Positions 35,496 to 47,536 of a stretch of 64,000 nucleotides of DNA are shown here, in pieces. The position numbers and the translations under genes were made by a program. The number at the start of each line of letters is the position of its first letter. The stretch's first letter is position 1. The notes below the pieces were generated by a model. That model had not been told where the DNA came from. It saw only the letters and a list, made by a program, of their open reading frames with translations, and made no database searches. This DNA comes from Escherichia coli (GTDB lineage: Bacteria > Pseudomonadota > Gammaproteobacteria > Enterobacterales > Enterobacteriaceae), in the NCBI RefSeq assembly GCF_030013595.1, contig NZ_CP122770.1. One strand, written 5' to 3'.

Positions 35496-37067
35496 TTACT
35501 GAGAGGTCAGATCAACTTTCCAGGGCAACAGATCGCGTACCCGGTTTGCCGGCCAATCCTGGATATGCTCAATGACGTAACGCAGCCATTTTTCTGGTTC
35601 CACATTGTTCAGACGGCATGTGCCGATCAGCGAGTACAACACCGCCGCATGTTCGCCACCGCTGTCGGAACCCGCGAAGAGCCAGTTTTTCCGGCCTACG
35701 GCCACTCCCCGTAAGGCGTTCTCTGCGATGTTGTTGTCGATTTCCACCCAGCCATTACTGCAGTACACGTTCAGGGCCTCCCACTGTTTCAGCAGGTATG
35801 CGAACGCTTTTGCCGTATCCGAGTGACGCGACAGTGTTTTCATCTGTTCCTGTATCCAGTCATACAGTGACTGCATCAGTGGAGCCGCTCTGGCTTTTCT
35901 TGCTGCCAGACGCTGTTCTGCTGAACATCCCCGGACTTCTGCCTCGATGACATACAGTTCACCGATACGCTGCAGGGCTTCCGTGGTGATGTCGGTTGGC
36001 ACTCTTGCATGCACATCGTGGATTTTTCTCCGGGCATGGGCCATACACGCGGCTTCCGTTATTCTGCCGGATTCGTATAACGCCCGGTAACCACCGTAAG
36101 CATCTGCCTGAAGCACACCGCTGTAACCGGCCAGGTGATTCTGTGGATGGATACCTTTCCGGTCCGGGCTGTACGCGAACCAGACCGCCGGGGGCATCTG
36201 TGAACCGGCGTTACGGTCATCACGGACATAGACCCACAGCCGGGCAGTTCTTGTTTTACCACTGCCCGGCTCCTGGACCGGAACGGGGATATCATCCGCA
36301 TGGACTTTACCGGGCATCAGCACATACTGGCGCAGCACGTCATACAGCGGCTCCAGCAGTTCAGCAACGGCACCGGTCCAGCGCCCCAGCGTGGCGCGGC
36401 TCAGTTCCACGCCCTGACGAAGGTATATTTCTGACTGGCGGTATAACGGCAGATGGTCTGCATACTTCCCGGTGACGATATGAGCCAGAAGCCCCGCTCC
36501 GGCATAACTGCGTGCAATGGGTTTTGAAGGTACTGGTGCCTGCACGATATGGTCGCACCGGCAACAGGCCAGTTTCGGACGTTGTGTTTCGATAACCTTA
36601 AAAGCGCTGCTGATAAGCTCCAGTTGCTCTGACACATCACACCCCAGAGGACTGAGGTCACCACCACAGGCCGGGCAGCATTCCTCTTCCGGCCGGATGA
36701 CCCGGGTTTCACGGGGAAGTGAGGCCGGTAACGGCTTACGGGCTGAAGACTGGCGCAGGGCGGATGGCAGTACCGGGTCATATTGCTCATCCAGCGTTTC
36801 CGCCATTTCTTCCTGAAGTGCGCTGATTCGCTCCTGGGCTTCCTGTATCTGCCGTTCGGTTTTAGCGCGAAGTTTTTCTGAGCTTTTACCGAACTGCATG
36901 CGCTGCAGTTTCGCAACCAGCGCCTTCAGCCGGTTGATTTCGGAAGCATAAGCCGCCACCCGCTGTGAGAGCAGGCGGTTGTATTTCGCCATCTGGCGGA
37001 TGGTGTCCTGTTGCGTCTGCAACAGTGCCCGCAGGCGGGCATTCTCATGAGCAAGTGAGGTGTCCAT
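35496..37067 (-). CDS. IS66-family transposase TnpC
   Basis: 523 aa; coiled-coil N-terminus, CxxC zinc motifs, DDE region. Confidence 0.9.
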
Positions 37068-37086
37068 ATCCTCACTTTACAACGGG

Positions 37087-37434
37087 TTATATGCGGATGC
37101 CAGCGCGTTCCGTTCGTTTCGGGTGCTTCCAGTCGATGCCTTCGAGAAGCATGGACAACTGAGCCGGAGTAAGGTGAACCTTTCCATCGCGGGTGACCGG
37201 CCAGACGAAGCGGCCCCGCTCCAGGCGTTTGGTGAAGAGGCACAGTCCGTCACTGTCAGCCCACAGCACTTTTATCTGGTCACCCCGGCGTCCGCGGAAG
37301 ATGAACAGATGCCCGGAGAACGGGTCATCCTTCAGGACGTTCTGAACTTTTGAGGCCAGGCCGTTAAAGCCATTTCGCATATCGGTGATACCGGCAACCA
37401 GCCAGATACGCGAACCGGCAGGGAGAGATATCAT
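37087..37434 (-). CDS. IS66 Orf2
   Basis: 115 aa; LFIFRGRRGDQIKVLWADSDGLCLFTKRLERGRF typical of IS66 Orf2. Confidence 0.85.
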   Translation of the reverse strand: MISLPAGSRIWLVAGITDMRNGFNGLASKVQNVLKDDPFSGHLFIFRGRRGDQIKVLWADSDGLCLFTKRLERGRFVWPVTRDGKVHLTPAQLSMLLEGIDWKHPKRTERAGIRI

Positions 37435-38084
37435 CAGTGGCTGCTCCCTTTCATTTCGCGGATAAGTGTCTGTAATAACGCCGGTGTCAGTTCACCTTTC
37501 AGCCTGAGAGTTCCGGCCGGCAGAACCAGCTCGCAGCACAGACTGTCTGGCAGTGTATTTATCTGTTCAGGTATCTGCACTGGTGCCGGGATTTTATTAT
37601 CCGGCTCCGGAGTTAACGTCACGGGAAGTAGCGATGTTTCATGTTCGCCGGGCGGTTGCAGGCCACCGTTACGCCAGAGATGCCGCCAGTTAAAGAGCAG
37701 GTTATCGTTAATTCCATTCTCTCGAGCTATTTGTGCGACACAAGCACCGGGTAAAAGAGTTTGCTGAACCAGTCTCCATTTAAACTCCGGTGAAAATCGG
37801 TTCCGGCGGGGTTTCTCTGCTTTCACAGGCTGAGTCACGGTCGGGGCTGAAGGGTATCGCCCCGGGAAAAGAGCCCGGGCCAGTTGCCCGCAGGAATATT
37901 CACCGGAAAGAGGCCAGTCAGTGAATACCTGGTGAAATCGCCTCACCAGAGAAAAAATGGCGGTTTTGCTGACACCGGTCTGCGCAGAAATGCGCGGGTA
38001 CGACAGTGACTCGTCAAATCTCAGCTGTAGCACACGCAGGATCAATTCCGGATTGTCTGCCAGTACCGCTTTTCGTGCATTCAT
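37434..38084 (-). CDS. IS66 Orf1 (HTH accessory protein)
   Basis: 216 aa immediately upstream of Orf2 with overlapping stop/start. Confidence 0.8.
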   Translation of the reverse strand: MNARKAVLADNPELILRVLQLRFDESLSYPRISAQTGVSKTAIFSLVRRFHQVFTDWPLSGEYSCGQLARALFPGRYPSAPTVTQPVKAEKPRRNRFSPEFKWRLVQQTLLPGACVAQIARENGINDNLLFNWRHLWRNGGLQPPGEHETSLLPVTLTPEPDNKIPAPVQIPEQINTLPDSLCCELVLPAGTLRLKGELTPALLQTLIREMKGSSH

Positions 38085-38730: not shown

Positions 38731-40611
38731 TTAAATACCCCAGAACTTATTCGCTTTTTCCACAAGCGATTCATCAATCAGCGCACCGGTGACAGCCATC
38801 AGTAAACCATACCCGATAATGCCTAAAGCGCTTCCGGTAAGAATACTGAAGACCAGTGCAACAAGAGCCGTTGCGGCATTGCCTGCTATAATGGCTTCTG
38901 TTTTAACAAAAAGAGGACGCCAGTTCTCTGTCCGGACAGCCTTACCAAACTCAGTGATCCAGTCAGCAAGACTTGTAAATTTTCCTGCATATCCCAGTCC
39001 CCGACTGAATCTGTTCAGATTAGACGATATATCAGACAGCTTCACAGACTCAAGGGCTGCGGCAATCGCTGCACGATCTTTTGCATTAATTTTTTTGTTA
39101 ATGTCAGCCCGGTACTTTTCATACGTTTTTAATGCCTCTTCAACATTACGTATTTTCTTCCCTTTAGCCTGCCCGGCCATCTCTCTGGCTAACTGCTCAG
39201 CTTTTGCACCATATTTTTCTGAAACTGATTTCAGGAACTCTGTTGTGAAATTAATTGCGTCTTTCGTTGCCTTCAGTTCATCCTGTTTTCTTTTCTCTTC
39301 CGCTATCTTCTGATTGATGCCGGCAAGCTGGTTACGGATATTCTCTTTTTCCTTCAACAGGGCATTAAGAGCGTCATTTGCATGCTTTTGCTCATTTGTT
39401 CTGGCACTGAGGTTATTTCTCGCCGAATTTACCGCAGATTCAGCAGAGGTGATTTTATTTCTGGCATCAAGCAATCGTTGCCGTAACTTATCCCATTCAG
39501 CAACTTCAGCATTATAAATTTTCTTGTCACCTTCCACATCCTCTGTCACCACCGGATTCCGGTCATTCAGAATATTGCGTTTATAATCCAGACCGGAATG
39601 GGTCAGAAGATAATTCAGGTTTGCACGGTTATCGATGACTGCGCTGGTTGTGATTTTTATCGTACCGGCAAATCTCGGATCACCGCTCACAACAATAGAA
39701 TGATTTGTTGATGAACGCCCCGGGAATTTTTCAGGGGAAACTATCGTTTTGCCGTCAGGCGTGTTTTTCTGTTGCGTCAGCTGTTGTTCAGCTCTGGTTA
39801 ATGCATTACGGGCCGTGTTAAGCGATTCCGTCACTGAACTGAGTTTATTCCGGGCCTCTGAAATGGCCCTGTCATTCCGTGTCTGCTGCCCGAGCAGACG
39901 GGCCTGTTGTGCATCAAGAACGGCAAGGGCTGCCCCGCCATTTTTTTCCAGCTCTGACAACCGCGTGTCCAGAATACCTTTTCTGCGCTCGTATTCAGCA
40001 AGCATATCAGCGGCCTTCTTGTCTGCGTTCTGCGCATCCTTCTGCCGTTTTTCAGCCTGTTCGATTAACGACCTGGCCTCCCGGGGAGATATACGAAGAG
40101 AATCAGCATCAGCAAACAGCATCCGGCTCTCTGTATGCAGCCGGAGGGCATCATATCCGGCGATTTCAGTACGGAATCCGTATTCTCTCAGCTCTGCCTG
40201 CAGGAGTCTGAACTCCTGTCGTGTAATATCAGCGGCATCTGCGTTTCCGGCACGGAGTGTTTTCAGTGTGTTTTCATCTTTTTCCCTTGCAGCAATCGCC
40301 GCAGAGAGGCGTTTTCCGGCTTCAGTACGCTTATTCTCATTCTCTTTCTGCTGCGCGCTGAGCGTGTTTTTGTACGCTGTGATTTCCTTGTCCCTTTTTT
40401 CGATATCACTTCGGGTTGGGGAATCATCAACCCACTCGTTTCCGCCCCAGATGGTTTTGTTCCCGAAGGAACTCCATGCAGGCGGGGTACCATGAAAGAC
40501 ATCGACACGTGGAGGGTTTACATAAATATCAACGGCCATAATTTCATGGCCATCTGAATCATACCCCAGCGATTCTGCACCGGGATTTGTAATACGTACA
40601 GGGTCAGACAT
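38731..40611 (-). CDS. cia: Colicin Ia (pore-forming; Ia/Ib family)
   Basis: 626 aa from MSDPVRITNPGAESLGYDSDGHEIMAVDIY; C-terminal hydrophobic hairpin; Ia versus Ib call from immunity length and C-terminus, from recall. Confidence 0.8.
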   Translation of the reverse strand: MSDPVRITNPGAESLGYDSDGHEIMAVDIYVNPPRVDVFHGTPPAWSSFGNKTIWGGNEWVDDSPTRSDIEKRDKEITAYKNTLSAQQKENENKRTEAGKRLSAAIAAREKDENTLKTLRAGNADAADITRQEFRLLQAELREYGFRTEIAGYDALRLHTESRMLFADADSLRISPREARSLIEQAEKRQKDAQNADKKAADMLAEYERRKGILDTRLSELEKNGGAALAVLDAQQARLLGQQTRNDRAISEARNKLSSVTESLNTARNALTRAEQQLTQQKNTPDGKTIVSPEKFPGRSSTNHSIVVSGDPRFAGTIKITTSAVIDNRANLNYLLTHSGLDYKRNILNDRNPVVTEDVEGDKKIYNAEVAEWDKLRQRLLDARNKITSAESAVNSARNNLSARTNEQKHANDALNALLKEKENIRNQLAGINQKIAEEKRKQDELKATKDAINFTTEFLKSVSEKYGAKAEQLAREMAGQAKGKKIRNVEEALKTYEKYRADINKKINAKDRAAIAAALESVKLSDISSNLNRFSRGLGYAGKFTSLADWITEFGKAVRTENWRPLFVKTEAIIAGNAATALVALVFSILTGSALGIIGYGLLMAVTGALIDESLVEKANKFWGI

Positions 40612-40682: not shown

Positions 40683-40889
40683 TTAATTTATTAAGGAGAA
40701 AATGGCATGTCAAGATTTGATGATAGTGATTATCATTAACATGAAGTGATGTTACACCGTTCAGAAAGCCTGCTGACGCTGTGGCAGCATCACAGTCTGG
40801 GTATTCTCTGGTGCAATACAAAAACCGGACTTTCCCGTAACAACAGACAATGTTACGGGAAAAGTTACAGAACTGAGCCACAAAATATC

Positions 40890-42305
40890 TCAGTACCTGA
40901 GATGCATAAAAACACCGTACATATGTTTCTTAAAAGGGGGATGATCGTTATCCAGCCATTTCGGTGGATCGGTATGCAGAACACCAATCTGCTTCATGCC
41001 GGTATGCTGCCTGGATTTTCTCGCGCAGTAATCACTGTCTTCATATCCCATCGTTTCGATGACCACTCTGGCCGTCTTTCCGTCAGGAGCCCTTGCTGTG
41101 ACAATGAAATCCGGCAGTACATATTTCTTTTCACCATTAACATAAACTTCTGTATCAAACAGGGGCCTTTCCAGACTTAATTCCGGCGTACCTGGCTTTC
41201 TTTTAAGCCAGCTGGCCACATTCAGAAGAGCAGTGAGCGTGTTTCGTTCCAGTTTGCTGTCCACAGGCACCGGACATGTCAGTTGATAAAGAGCATGAGC
41301 ATACCCTTCACTGCAGATGATTCTGCCATCGGCACTCCGGCAAAAAGCAAGAATAACCCAGTAAGGGGGACGTATTCCGCCCTGCGCTTCACCATTAATA
41401 CTGATCCCCCGCACAGGTCTGATGACCTGAATATTACCGTTCGCCCAGTGAATTTCCACAGCATCACGACAGATGTGCTGCGCCATAAAAATCTGAAAGA
41501 ACATATGCTTTCTTCTGGCAGGCCAGTGTCGTTCTGAATTCTCCAGCGTTTCCATTAACCGCTCCTGAGACCTTTCAGACATTCCTGGCCGGAAATGGAT
41601 AATTTCAGATAAGGCTCTTCCCCGAATATACTCCTGCTGTAGTGTAACCTGCCGTATGGCATCAAGACACTCACGATAATTAGTCCGGATACGGGGATTA
41701 GCCAGGGAATCCAGTTTATTCAGCCCTGCATCTTCAATAAGCGACAGGAGTAAACGGCCAAGGCGCGGACGTTTCTTGCGAACGGAGGAGCGCTCACCAT
41801 TATGGTAAGCAGAGCGGGCCTGCAGTCTGATAACAGAATTACTGTCATCAGGTGGTAAAAAGTTTCTGTAATTTATACGGGTGCTAACGGGATGCCGGCT
41901 TGCTCCGAAGGATGTTTCCTCTTCATTTCCGGATAACTGACGATACATGGGGCATTCAGGTGCATGCTCATGATTAAAACTGGACAGATAAAGAGTACCC
42001 GTATTGTTTTTAAGAGCAGCAAAATTCATGGCCGGCGAATCTCCCGGAATACAGTCACACTGTAACCATGCATCATACTCACGCATTTCCCGGAGAAGAG
42101 CATTGGCCAGGTTATGTTGTGCCATGGTTGCTGGCCTTTTCAGTCCACAGACCGTCTTTACTGCAGTCTCTTCCTCACTGCTAAGCTCCCGAATCACTTT
42201 GCCCCGGGGATTCTTCTTTACAAGTATCATTGGCATAATGAAAGCACTCCTTATGTACATGCTTAAACAGTAAGTAAAATATACAAAGAACCCCCCATGA
42301 AACAA
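40890..42305 (-). CDS. Large conserved hypothetical protein (possibly DUF1173-like); start likely internal (MPMILVKK)
   Basis: 471-aa ORF; C-terminal YVLPDFIVT...VVIETMGYEDSDY block. Confidence 0.5.
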   Translation of the reverse strand: MFHGGFFVYFTYCLSMYIRSAFIMPMILVKKNPRGKVIRELSSEEETAVKTVCGLKRPATMAQHNLANALLREMREYDAWLQCDCIPGDSPAMNFAALKNNTGTLYLSSFNHEHAPECPMYRQLSGNEEETSFGASRHPVSTRINYRNFLPPDDSNSVIRLQARSAYHNGERSSVRKKRPRLGRLLLSLIEDAGLNKLDSLANPRIRTNYRECLDAIRQVTLQQEYIRGRALSEIIHFRPGMSERSQERLMETLENSERHWPARRKHMFFQIFMAQHICRDAVEIHWANGNIQVIRPVRGISINGEAQGGIRPPYWVILAFCRSADGRIICSEGYAHALYQLTCPVPVDSKLERNTLTALLNVASWLKRKPGTPELSLERPLFDTEVYVNGEKKYVLPDFIVTARAPDGKTARVVIETMGYEDSDYCARKSRQHTGMKQIGVLHTDPPKWLDNDHPPFKKHMYGVFMHLRY

Positions 42306-42589: not shown

Positions 42590-43183
42590 ATGGGAAAAAA
42601 TCAGGAAGAAAGGAAAACTCCCGTCATTGTGGTGAAAAAACGTCGTACTTTTTCGCCACCGTCCTTATCCGAAAAAACAGATATTATCGCACCTGTATTT
42701 ACTGAACAGACGGCAGAATCAGCCCCCGCCGGAATAAATTCATCTGCCGTCGAAACACATATCCCCGAAGCGCCAGCCAGGAAGAAGAAAAAGAAAAGAC
42801 ACCGTTTTCCACGTCCCTCCCACTGGACCCGTGAGTATACTCACGAGTGCGTGGAAAAAATAAAGGCCCTGTTTCCTCATCTTCGTGCTGAAGGTGGTGG
42901 ATTTATTCCCCTGAAAATTGGCATAAGCAATGATATTTCGGCATTTCTGGCAGAAAGCCCGGATACAGAACTGTCCATGGACGAATGGTTCTGTGCAGTG
43001 TCCTGCATCACCTCCCGCCGCGTATATCTGCAGCGGACCTCTGTCGCCGGCGTCCCTCGTTATGGGCTGGATGGTCATCCCGATGGGCAGGTCTCAGAAA
43101 CTGAAGCACAGAGTGCTGTTCAAAGACTGGCGATAATAGAACAACGGTGGCTCAGGATGAAGGAACGGCAGACTGAGCAATAA
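42590..43183 (+). CDS. ProQ/FinO-domain RNA-binding protein
   Basis: 197 aa; basic N-terminus, FinO-like central region; assignment from recall. Confidence 0.55.
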   Translation: MGKNQEERKTPVIVVKKRRTFSPPSLSEKTDIIAPVFTEQTAESAPAGINSSAVETHIPEAPARKKKKKRHRFPRPSHWTREYTHECVEKIKALFPHLRAEGGGFIPLKIGISNDISAFLAESPDTELSMDEWFCAVSCITSRRVYLQRTSVAGVPRYGLDGHPDGQVSETEAQSAVQRLAIIEQRWLRMKERQTEQ

Positions 43184-43464: not shown

Positions 43465-44331
43465 TTAACGCATAATTACCCGTGATTCTTTCCTGGTAAC
43501 GTAAGTACAGTTATCCGGAACCTCCTCCATAATAAAAGACATGGCTCCAATTTTTACATTACTGCCTATTTTTACGTTAAGCCCGATAATACACGTATGG
43601 GCACCGATATCGACATTATCACCAATAACGATATAATTCTCTCTGCTGTCAGATTCCTTTTCGCCAATGGTCGTATTCTGCCGTATAATCACATTCTCAC
43701 CGATTTTTACATTTCCGTGAATGACGACGCCTGAATGGTGGGGCAGCACGAGGCCTTTACCAATCTGCGCCCCCAGACCAATATCACATCCATACTTTGC
43801 CATAAGCGCATTTTTTATCTTGATCGCACATTTTCGTTGTTTTTTATTCCCCGATATATACATTTCATTAGCCAGGCGCCACCACAGAAGAAAACCTCTC
43901 TGCCTCTGCATACCGTTCCTGATAAGCCGGTGAAAAACAAACTTATCCCGCATGATAACTTCTGCTTTCCAGTATTCCAGAAGATGACGTTTTTTTCCTG
44001 AAAATAAAAACGTGCCAATATGGAAATAAGAAATCGGATTTTTTATCAACATACGCAAATTTTTAGAAAACAATGAATACAGATGTATTTTATATACACA
44101 GATAAAACCGCGCAACAGACATAAATATGACAGTAGCAATGAAAAAGCAGAGAGTGTGGGTGATACAGAAAAGTAACTGTCAGACATTAAATCTGATGCA
44201 TCGATAAACAGACGCCCCAGCAGATGCACCTGTAATGCAACGATTTTGCCGTGTCTGCTACAGAAGTAATACACAAATTTCCGGGGATTCTGCCTTAGCA
44301 TTTTGATATATTCAGATACGGTAAATCTCAC
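43465..44331 (-). CDS. Hexapeptide-repeat acyltransferase (CysE/WcaB-like) with hydrophobic N-terminal region
   Basis: C-terminal LbH repeats (GVVIHGNVKIGENVIIRQN...IGDNVDIGAH...NVKIGSNVKIGAMS); AT-rich. Confidence 0.75.
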   Translation of the reverse strand: MRFTVSEYIKMLRQNPRKFVYYFCSRHGKIVALQVHLLGRLFIDASDLMSDSYFSVSPTLSAFSLLLSYLCLLRGFICVYKIHLYSLFSKNLRMLIKNPISYFHIGTFLFSGKKRHLLEYWKAEVIMRDKFVFHRLIRNGMQRQRGFLLWWRLANEMYISGNKKQRKCAIKIKNALMAKYGCDIGLGAQIGKGLVLPHHSGVVIHGNVKIGENVIIRQNTTIGEKESDSRENYIVIGDNVDIGAHTCIIGLNVKIGSNVKIGAMSFIMEEVPDNCTYVTRKESRVIMR

Positions 44332-44888: not shown

Positions 44889-45170
44889 TTATGGCCACTT
44901 CTGTGCGGTATGCAACACGCGCAGGACATACACTTTTCCCCACTGGCTGTCGACCTCATAAACCAGAACAAAATGGGGGTGAATAACCAGTTCCCGGGTT
45001 CCTTCCACACGACCGTTGCGACCTTTATACGGCTGCCCGGCCAGGCTGCTGGCTGAATAACCAATCCGTTCGTCCAGTTCAATGGCGGCCATCAGGTTCT
45101 GCTCCGCAATGTACTCACGAATGCGCTTCCTGTCCTGGCTGGCCAGCATGGTCCAGAATATCTCCATCAT
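44889..45170 (-). CDS. RelE/ParE-family toxin
   Basis: 93-aa ORF overlapping upstream antitoxin ORF by 4 nt. Confidence 0.7.
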   Translation of the reverse strand: MMEIFWTMLASQDRKRIREYIAEQNLMAAIELDERIGYSASSLAGQPYKGRNGRVEGTRELVIHPHFVLVYEVDSQWGKVYVLRVLHTAQKWP

Positions 45171-45436
45171 TTATCGGAAACCTTCCTGCTCATTTCATCC
45201 CGCCATGCAGCGGCAGAAGATTCGACCATGTCATGGGGAAGCACATCGCCGCGCTCGAGTTGCTGACGTCCTGCCGCAACCTGGTCACGGAACCAGGTAT
45301 TATGCTGCCGTTCAACGGTCTGGCGCATAAAATCCCGAATTAACTGAGAGCCATTACGGTCCATGCTTTTTGCAGCGGCCATAAAAGCATCCTTCAGTTC
45401 AGCGTCGATTCTTAAACTCATATTAACCTGTGCCAT
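45167..45436 (-). CDS. RelB/DinJ-family antitoxin
   Basis: 89 aa, RHH-like N-terminus (MAQVNMSLRIDAELKDAFMAAAK). Confidence 0.7.
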   Translation of the reverse strand: MAQVNMSLRIDAELKDAFMAAAKSMDRNGSQLIRDFMRQTVERQHNTWFRDQVAAGRQQLERGDVLPHDMVESSAAAWRDEMSRKVSDK

Positions 45437-47375: not shown

Positions 47376-47452
47376 AAGCTGTCGCTTATGGCGGAGCGAT
47401 TGTGCCGTGTATTTATACACTGCACAGGGTTGAATCTCTGGTACGGTTTCAT
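47363..47452 (-). CDS. repY: RepY leader peptide (29 codons) coupled to repZ translation
   Basis: ATG at 47452, stop at 47363 overlapping repZ start; MKPYQRFNPVQCINTRHNRSAISDSLWQV. Confidence 0.65.
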   Translation of the reverse strand: MKPYQRFNPVQCINTRHNRSAISDSLWQV

Positions 47453-47464
47453 TATACTTTACCC

Positions 47465-47536
47465 GTATTCTGTGAGGCCCCCACTATCTTTCGTCGTTCC
47501 GCCAAGTTCGTAAGAAAGATAGTGGGGGTTTTCCTT
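47465..47536 (+). ncRNA. inc: Inc antisense RNA (copy-number control), approximate
   Basis: 14-bp perfect stem (47476-47491 / 47515-47528), loop with CCGCCAA (mRNA loop UUGGCGG), T-rich tail on plus strand. Confidence 0.55.

Follow-up and report, generated by a model that had tools for sequence, protein, structure and literature searches.

A minus-strand open reading frame (ORF) of 471 codons, opening with TTG, runs from position 42305 to 40890 of a 64,000-nucleotide (nt) stretch of Escherichia coli DNA (contig NZ_CP122770.1, assembly GCF_030013595.1; hereafter referred to as the window). In identical IncI1/I-gamma plasmid DNA from Salmonella and E. coli (100% identity), RefSeq annotates the gene at this place as 'protein YagA' (WP_032082920.1, 1347 nt), with a span that corresponds to window positions 40890–42236. 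Here we analyse this gene, yagA, whose name is well established and whose family has been described by computation, and the nuclease-like domain of its product. An AAGGAG Shine–Dalgarno sequence (42252–42247) stands 10 nt 5′ of an ATG at 42236–42234, and the family alignments open at the methionine of this ATG, leaving the first 23 codons of the mechanically called ORF outside both the alignments and the RefSeq annotation. Because the RefSeq start, the Shine–Dalgarno sequence and the homologue alignments all point to ATG 42236, this codon rather than TTG 42305 is most likely the true start, giving a product of 448 amino acids, and the first 23 codons are probably untranslated. An initial annotation, made from the DNA sequence alone, had described a protein of about 450 amino acids.

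The same annotation had placed the gene between a colicin operon and a FinO-like gene, and this arrangement holds. The genes for colicin Ia and its immunity protein lie downstream of yagA, and the divergent ProQ/FinO gene on the other side is fopA, also called yafB (Table 1). A terminator-like hairpin 3′ of yagA stands between the gene and the colicin Ia promoter. The repZ pseudoknot, 5 kb from yagA, confirms that the window belongs to an I-complex replicon. We found no yagA paralogue within the window and no LexA-box-like site in the 354-bp region upstream of the gene.

To define the family, we searched 1.84 billion representative proteins exhaustively with HMMER and retrieved 535 clusters at E ≤ 1 × 10−3, many of them full-length at 430–460 residues. 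The ORF is a genuine gene by this comparison and not a chance reading frame, because these 535 representative clusters match it and full-length relatives can be traced to identities as low as about 20%. An alignment of 67 full-length relatives, 19–57% identical to YagA, revealed two conserved blocks, an N-terminal Cys/His motif and a C-terminal series of nuclease motifs, and all conservation counts below refer to it. In the N-terminal motif, C60, C62 and H91 are present in all 67 sequences, C95 in 64 and W57 in 62. The spacing C60-x-C62-x28-H91-x3-C95 conforms to the CysXCysXnHisX3-5Cys motif of the DUF1173 family, and the site would bind a metal ion, presumably zinc.

The C-terminal series comprises D326-S327-x2-E330-R331, K357-P358, P375-D376-F377, E394-x-M-G397 and Y403-x3-K407. 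S327, E330 and P358 are invariant, and each of the remaining named residues is conserved in at least 58 of the 67 members; D376, G397 and K407 each occur in 66 members, and E394 and Y403 in 65. Position 357 is lysine in 66 members, and arginine in the YagA of the window. The three acidic residues characteristic of PD-(D/E)xK enzymes, namely a glutamate in helix 1, the aspartate of the PD motif and an acidic residue in strand 3, are present as E330, D376 and E394. The position of the canonical (D/E)xK lysine is occupied by M396 (methionine in 60 of 67), and this lysine is the only canonical element that is missing. The next helix bears K407, which matches a conserved lysine of Bax1 in the alignment and may substitute for the absent canonical lysine. 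Motifs II and III lie in the block YVLPDFIVT...VVIETMGYEDSDY, to which the initial annotation had drawn attention.

Table 1 Features of yagA and its immediate surroundings, in window coordinates.
Feature	Position	Strand	Basis
yagA coding sequence (448 amino acids plus stop)	40890–42236	−	ORF; RefSeq annotation of identical sequence; homologue alignments from this Met
5′ extension of the mechanical ORF from TTG, probably untranslated	42237–42305	−	Holds AAGGAG at 42247–42252
N-terminal putative zinc site, W57-x2-C60-x-C62...H91-x3-C95	41952–42068	−	Conservation; DUF1173 pattern
Middle region, residues 150–321: conserved basic stretch and helix (PxLxRxLxxLLxxAGLN), then β-rich domain	41274–41789	−	
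Predicted C-terminal restriction-endonuclease-like (Bax1/DUF790-type) domain, residues 322–415	40992–41273	−	
Nuclease motif I, D326-S-K-L-E330-R331	41244–41261	−	S327 and E330 invariant; colinear with Bax1-family motif
Block of the initial annotation, residues 372–403: motif II (P375-D376-F377), motif III (E394-T-M-G397) and start of the Y403...K407 helix	41028–41123	−	Conservation; AfBax1 alignment
Terminator-like hairpin past the yagA stop	40830–40863	−	Terminator scan: 13 pairs and T run; perfect 12-nt inverted repeat 40831–40842/40851–40862
Colicin Ia gene	38731–40611	−	
fopA/yafB (ProQ/FinO)	42590–43183	+	
repZ pseudoknot	47388–47536		

Taken alone, the YagA sequence reveals little of its relationships. 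A phmmer search against the Protein Data Bank (PDB) returned noise only, a direct Pfam scan gave a weak match to DUF790 (PF05626; 10.4 bits versus a gathering threshold of 28.8, E = 0.26), and an NCBIfam scan gave a weak match, below threshold, to a restriction-endonuclease family only. Across the family, 23 of the 67 relatives individually match DUF790 at E ≤ 0.01 (best 2.2 × 10−5). A profile of the whole alignment, compared with all PDB sequences, retrieved Bax1-family endonucleases only (best 6P66_B, E = 0.0026). The five best PDB matches of a profile of the C-terminal domain are also all Bax1-family proteins (best E = 7 × 10−4), and the sole other match is marginal (E = 0.39). Foldseek likewise ranks Bax1 at the top, and the fold searches yield restriction-endonuclease-like nucleases.

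The profile alignments superimpose P375-D376 of YagA on P304-D305 of AfBax1, E394 on E318, and Y403 and K407 on the conserved tyrosine and lysine of Bax1. About 30 residues before the PD motif, the DSxLE motif of YagA is colinear with DSSLER and DSSVEE in 8gy8_A and 6p4o_B, stretches that score poorly alone, and E330 is probably the counterpart of AfBax1 E275. The proposed metal site of Bax1 consists of E275, D305 and E318, within a VRR-Nuc-like restriction-endonuclease fold, and the D301A substitution in Sulfolobus Bax1 abolishes cleavage (PMC7293015). Because the canonical (D/E)xK lysine is missing from Bax1 as well, Met396 in YagA is no evidence of degeneracy. The 'degenerate nuclease-like core' of the initial annotation is thus upheld as a nuclease-like core, with Bax1/DUF790-type motifs II and III in the block that it singled out, but not as a degenerate one, as the acidic residues are conserved. 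Nor did we find YagA assignable to a known backbone function with its catalytic residues unconserved, the outcome that had been named there as speaking against the proposal. Taken together, the comparisons give good support to a restriction-endonuclease-like domain with a conserved, putative Bax1-type metal site and a CCHC motif in YagA.

The likeness to Bax1 (DUF790/PF05626; 6P66, 6P4F, 6P4O, 6P4W and 8GY8) consists of three colinear motifs (DSxLE; PD-F; v-E-x-x-G...Y...K) and has clear limits. The similarity is confined to about 45–130 residues, and the N-terminal XPB-binding and Cas2-like domains of Bax1 are not found in YagA. Moreover, the repair protein Bax1 is archaeal and has an obligate helicase partner, whereas yagA stands alone on the plasmids and islands of bacteria. 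A helicase partner of the Bax1 kind was considered for YagA and rejected: no gene for an XPB-type helicase was identified beside yagA in the window, or beside homologues at about 25 loci, where many neighbouring ORFs carry no Pfam label. Other structure-specific PD-(D/E)xK nucleases, namely VRR-Nuc/FAN1, Hjc/Hje, TnsA and the nuclease domains of Can2/Card1 and Cap4, have no detectable sequence similarity to YagA. They also differ from it in their accessory domains: YagA lacks a CARF or SAVED sensor, and a resolvase-type dimer cannot be deduced for it.

The fold had already been assigned in earlier work. DUF1173 (PF06666) was analysed in 2010 as a family of bacterial proteins of about 400 amino acids that carry the zinc motif CysXCysXnHisX3-5Cys near the N terminus and, towards the C terminus, a domain related to PD-(D/E)XK enzymes and linked to DUF790 (Laganeckas, Margelevicius, Venclovas 2010; PMC3045609), and DUF790 had first been placed in the superfamily because it resembles T7 endonuclease I, the Holliday-junction resolvases of archaea and DUF1064 (PMC1189080). 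YagA has the same architecture as DUF1173, with family members of 430–460 residues, and a 53%-identical relative and several rhizobial relatives are named 'DUF1173 family protein' in UniRef. YagA itself does not match PF06666 even at E ≤ 1, and 2 of the 67 relatives do so at E ≤ 0.01. In a public protein collection, the precomputed Pfam label PF27227.1, 'Endonuc-like_C', which names a fold and not a function, is attached to P0151 (99% identical to YagA) and to nearly all full-length relatives, including the rhizobial clade. A profile search of 5.8 billion proteins, together with a search started from a Rhizobium homologue, revealed no new domain fusions and no PF06666 label. DUF1173 was reported to lack the PD-(D/E)XK signature at the active site and to have no known function (PMC3045609), whereas the YagA family keeps the E, D and E residues and the helix lysine almost throughout. 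The new element here is that, judged by these alignments, the YagA clade retains the complete Bax1-type catalytic motif set. We found no functional study of YagA in the literature.

The 535 or more YagA/PF27227 clusters span Alpha-, Beta- and Gammaproteobacteria, and family members occur on plasmids and genomic islands only. A tblastn search detected YagA in 1,441 plasmid records, of which 1,282 are conjugative, with hosts that include Escherichia, Salmonella, Shigella, Enterobacter, Serratia, Rhizobium, Sphingomonas and Yersinia; the same kind of search of 50,697 phage genomes found none. An 8.2-kb contig of a 'Collinsella sp.' metagenome-assembled genome (L009, JAIJJM010000080.1) carries yagA and fopA nearly identical to those of IncI1 and is almost certainly a mis-binned enterobacterial plasmid fragment. 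In Devosia pacifica, an 863-residue ORF (L024, 5715–8306) has only the PDF...ExxG region in common with YagA (residues 367–402, E = 7 × 10−4 within the candidate set) and may be a different, larger protein using the same nuclease module. A 22%-identical relative on a 13.8-kb contig (L027, GCA_964510215.1) has as its neighbours a PDDEXK_1 (Cas4/RecB-like) gene, ribonucleotide reductase genes in split form and numerous small ORFs, a context that is phage- or plasmid-like in appearance, though the phage genome collection gave no match.

We then compared the neighbourhoods of yagA homologues in 20 non-redundant loci and four annotated plasmids. The homologue is solitary in every surveyed locus, with no conserved partner and no helicase gene. 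The recurring neighbours are genes for ParA with a small partner (9 loci), Rep3 initiators (7), ResD-like tyrosine recombinases (8) and UmuC/ImpB-like proteins (6), and IncFII RepA occurs once; in the annotated plasmids, SopAB, ParAB or StbB is encoded near yagA. The homologue lies 48 nt downstream of Rep3 in L007 and between parA and rep3 in L019, L020 and L022. In L008, it belongs to the cargo of an integrase island, beside smpB, together with an AAA_5 gene and, 5 kb away, a DNA methylase gene; this is the only methylase encountered, and the DNA on either side of yagA encodes no methyltransferase in the window, as is also the case at most homologue loci. Among the neighbours of homologues, 8 of 10 tested match no defence model, and the other two are an AbiTii gene 14 nt upstream of the Ewingella homologue (L013, 6431–7321) and the PADLOC candidate PDC-S67 directly downstream of the Pectobacterium homologue (L007, 3017–3640). 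YagA itself has no match in PADLOC-DB v2 at E ≤ 1 and none in PHROGs.

The colicin and FinO neighbours of yagA are peculiar to IncI1 and not general to the family. Near homologues, a ProQ/FinO gene recurs only in two loci. In the metagenome contig L002, a distant ProQ/FinO gene (3007–3540) stands behind a YagA homologue of 33% identity and shares its strand, and in L018 such a gene (12513–12872) lies 3.4 kb from a truncated homologue. A functional pairing of YagA with a FinO/ProQ protein was rejected, as ProQ/FinO genes are missing from most loci, and the association is probably a coincidental linkage in the plasmid backbone.

Several observations indicate that plasmids can dispense with yagA. 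The gene is present at ≥80% identity in about 1,190 plasmid records, compared with 1,600–1,855 records that contain an I-complex replicon, such that about two thirds carry it. In addition, 283 of the 1,441 plasmid matches (about 20%) span less than 80% of YagA, and a genome scan seeded with 14 closer sequences found a frameshifted or truncated yagA in 5 of 15 loci. One IncI plasmid record has ISEcp1-blaCMY-2-blc-sugE inserted within yagA at about residue 295, and a similar ISEcp1-blaCTX-M-55 insertion has been described (PMC4541600). Because about one third of I-complex plasmids lack yagA and its frequent disruption is harmless to the plasmid, the best explanation is that yagA is accessory, needed for neither replication nor transfer, as the initial annotation had suggested in calling its product a candidate accessory protein. 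The dN/dS ratio between two IncI1 alleles is 0.53, a value calculated from 17 differences, too few to say much, none of which falls in residues 325–415. The gene sits in the backbone of one of the most important resistance-plasmid families, and blaCMY-2 and blaCTX-M transposition units often insert into it.

Our favoured interpretation, to which we give a probability of roughly 0.6, is that YagA is a stand-alone, metal-dependent endonuclease of plasmids and genomic islands with an accessory role. From the conservation of its motifs and the biochemistry of Bax1, YagA is probably an active DNA endonuclease. The C-terminal ~125 residues form a restriction-endonuclease-like (PD-(D/E)xK) domain, with the motifs DSxxE, PD and ExxG...Y...K colinear with those of Bax1, in which E330, D376 and E394 would bind Mg2+ or Mn2+ and cut the phosphodiester bond, and K407, or the residue at position 357, could supply the missing canonical lysine. 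The zinc module and the β-rich middle domain probably choose the DNA substrate. This substrate is more likely to be a structure or state of DNA (branched, single-stranded, flapped or modified) than a plain sequence, because the nearest relatives (Bax1, Hjc/Hje, VRR-Nuc, TnsA and the T7 endonuclease I-like DUF790) recognize DNA structure and no methyltransferase accompanies yagA. The gene is anchored among replication, partition and resolution genes, and its product is likely to act either on DNA intermediates or on foreign DNA that competes with the element. A probable nuclease, rather than inert filler, provides a testable reason why disruption of yagA might alter competition with other elements, DNA processing or host cost, and an uncharacterized family widespread on proteobacterial plasmids thereby gains a hypothesis of catalysis in which the residues are named.

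An accessory function tied to the maintenance region agrees with the data, which do not distinguish between processing of DNA intermediates of the plasmid itself and an attack on DNA of foreign origin. The former is a tentative proposal, in which YagA would be a structure-specific nuclease that processes replication or recombination intermediates of its plasmid (junctions, flaps or multimers) alongside Rep, ParAB and ResD. A replication or partition gene lies within a few kilobases in about 15 of 22 loci, the homologue directly follows SopAB or ParAB in pENTE01 and a Serratia plasmid, the closest nuclease relatives (Bax1, Hjc, VRR-Nuc and T7 endonuclease I-like proteins) are structure-specific, and weak OB-fold-like matches of the middle domain hint at binding of single-stranded DNA. 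The yafA–yafB–yagA segment has also been termed a 'plasmid stability region', although this name came without data (PMC4541600). Against a maintenance role stand the natural IncI plasmids in which resistance-gene insertions have broken yagA and the I-complex plasmids that lack it, and no maintenance gene forms a conserved operon with yagA. Furthermore, a saturating transposon screen of the I-complex plasmid pMS7163B, on which the presence of yagA is unconfirmed, identified no requirement for maintenance beyond the replicon and parAB (PMC10286972).

Attack on foreign DNA, in line with the defence protein that the initial annotation had named as the other candidate, is a comparably speculative reading, in which YagA would be a single-gene defence or competition nuclease that cuts the DNA of phages or rival plasmids, such as modified DNA, in a Type IV-like manner, or incoming single-stranded conjugative DNA. 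It accords with a solitary nuclease on mobile elements that is accompanied by no methyltransferase, and with the frequent loss or disruption of yagA, as fluctuating selection would predict. The IncI1 gene lies in the variable repZ–resD region, here together with colicin Ia and the YacAB toxin–antitoxin pair, and in other IncI1 plasmids this region carries phage-inhibition genes (PMC8004404); AbiTii, PDC-S67 and the L008 island cargo with its methylase and AAA_5 genes are further neighbours of this kind. Nevertheless, neither PADLOC nor PHROGs contains a matching model, only two of ten tested neighbours are defence-related, and the genes that accompany it most consistently are those of replication, partition and resolution, not those of defence islands. 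YagA has no recognized domain for reading modified bases, and prophages often carry defence genes, yet no copy occurs among the phage genomes searched. Moreover, a Col-type plasmid that keeps the genes up to yagA but lacks ibfA left the phage type unchanged (PMC8004404). A bolder version, which we consider more doubtful still, holds that YagA/PF27227 proteins are an unrecognized class of solitary plasmid and island nucleases that combine a CCHC zinc module, possibly an OB-like domain for binding single-stranded DNA, and a Bax1-type active site, and that they are directed against the DNA of competing mobile elements, such as single-stranded intermediates of conjugation or structures formed during phage replication. 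If true, this would represent a new single-gene system of conflict between elements within the plasmid maintenance region.

That the nuclease-like domain is dead, leaving YagA only a DNA- or RNA-binding or regulatory protein, appears improbable. Such a view could draw on the description of DUF1173 as lacking the PD-(D/E)XK signature (PMC3045609), on the missing canonical lysine (M396), on the K357R replacement in the YagA of the window, and on the neighbouring RNA chaperone gene, with its counterparts in L002 and L018. However, E330 is invariant and D376, E394, Y403 and K407 are nearly so across sequences that are otherwise 19–57% identical, the same motif set, also without the canonical lysine, is catalytically active in Bax1, and most loci have no ProQ/FinO neighbour. 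The stand-alone, metal-dependent endonuclease remains our preferred reading of YagA.

Other features of the window lie outside yagA. A high-G+C (0.55–0.59) IS66-family element at about 35496–38084 (minus strand) adjoins the colicin Ia immunity gene and encodes a DDE_Tnp_IS66 transposase of 523 residues, a TnpB_IS66 protein of 115 residues and a helix–turn–helix transposase protein of 216 residues; it is missing from the otherwise identical plasmid region in L001. On the other side of yagA, a low-G+C stretch at 43465–44331 (minus strand) encodes a hexapeptide-repeat acetyltransferase resembling serine O-acetyltransferase and EpsC (E = 1 × 10−24). The RefSeq product in the same frame is shorter (196 residues), and the longer N-terminal ORF may be spurious. 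Between this gene and repZ, at 44889–45436 (minus strand), lies the YacA/YacB (RelE/ParE-type) toxin–antitoxin pair. Finally, a perfect LexA-box-like palindrome, CTGTATATGCATACAG, is found at 27540–27555, and matches to CTGT-N8-ACAG with at most one mismatch are over-represented across the window (56 observed versus 23 expected).
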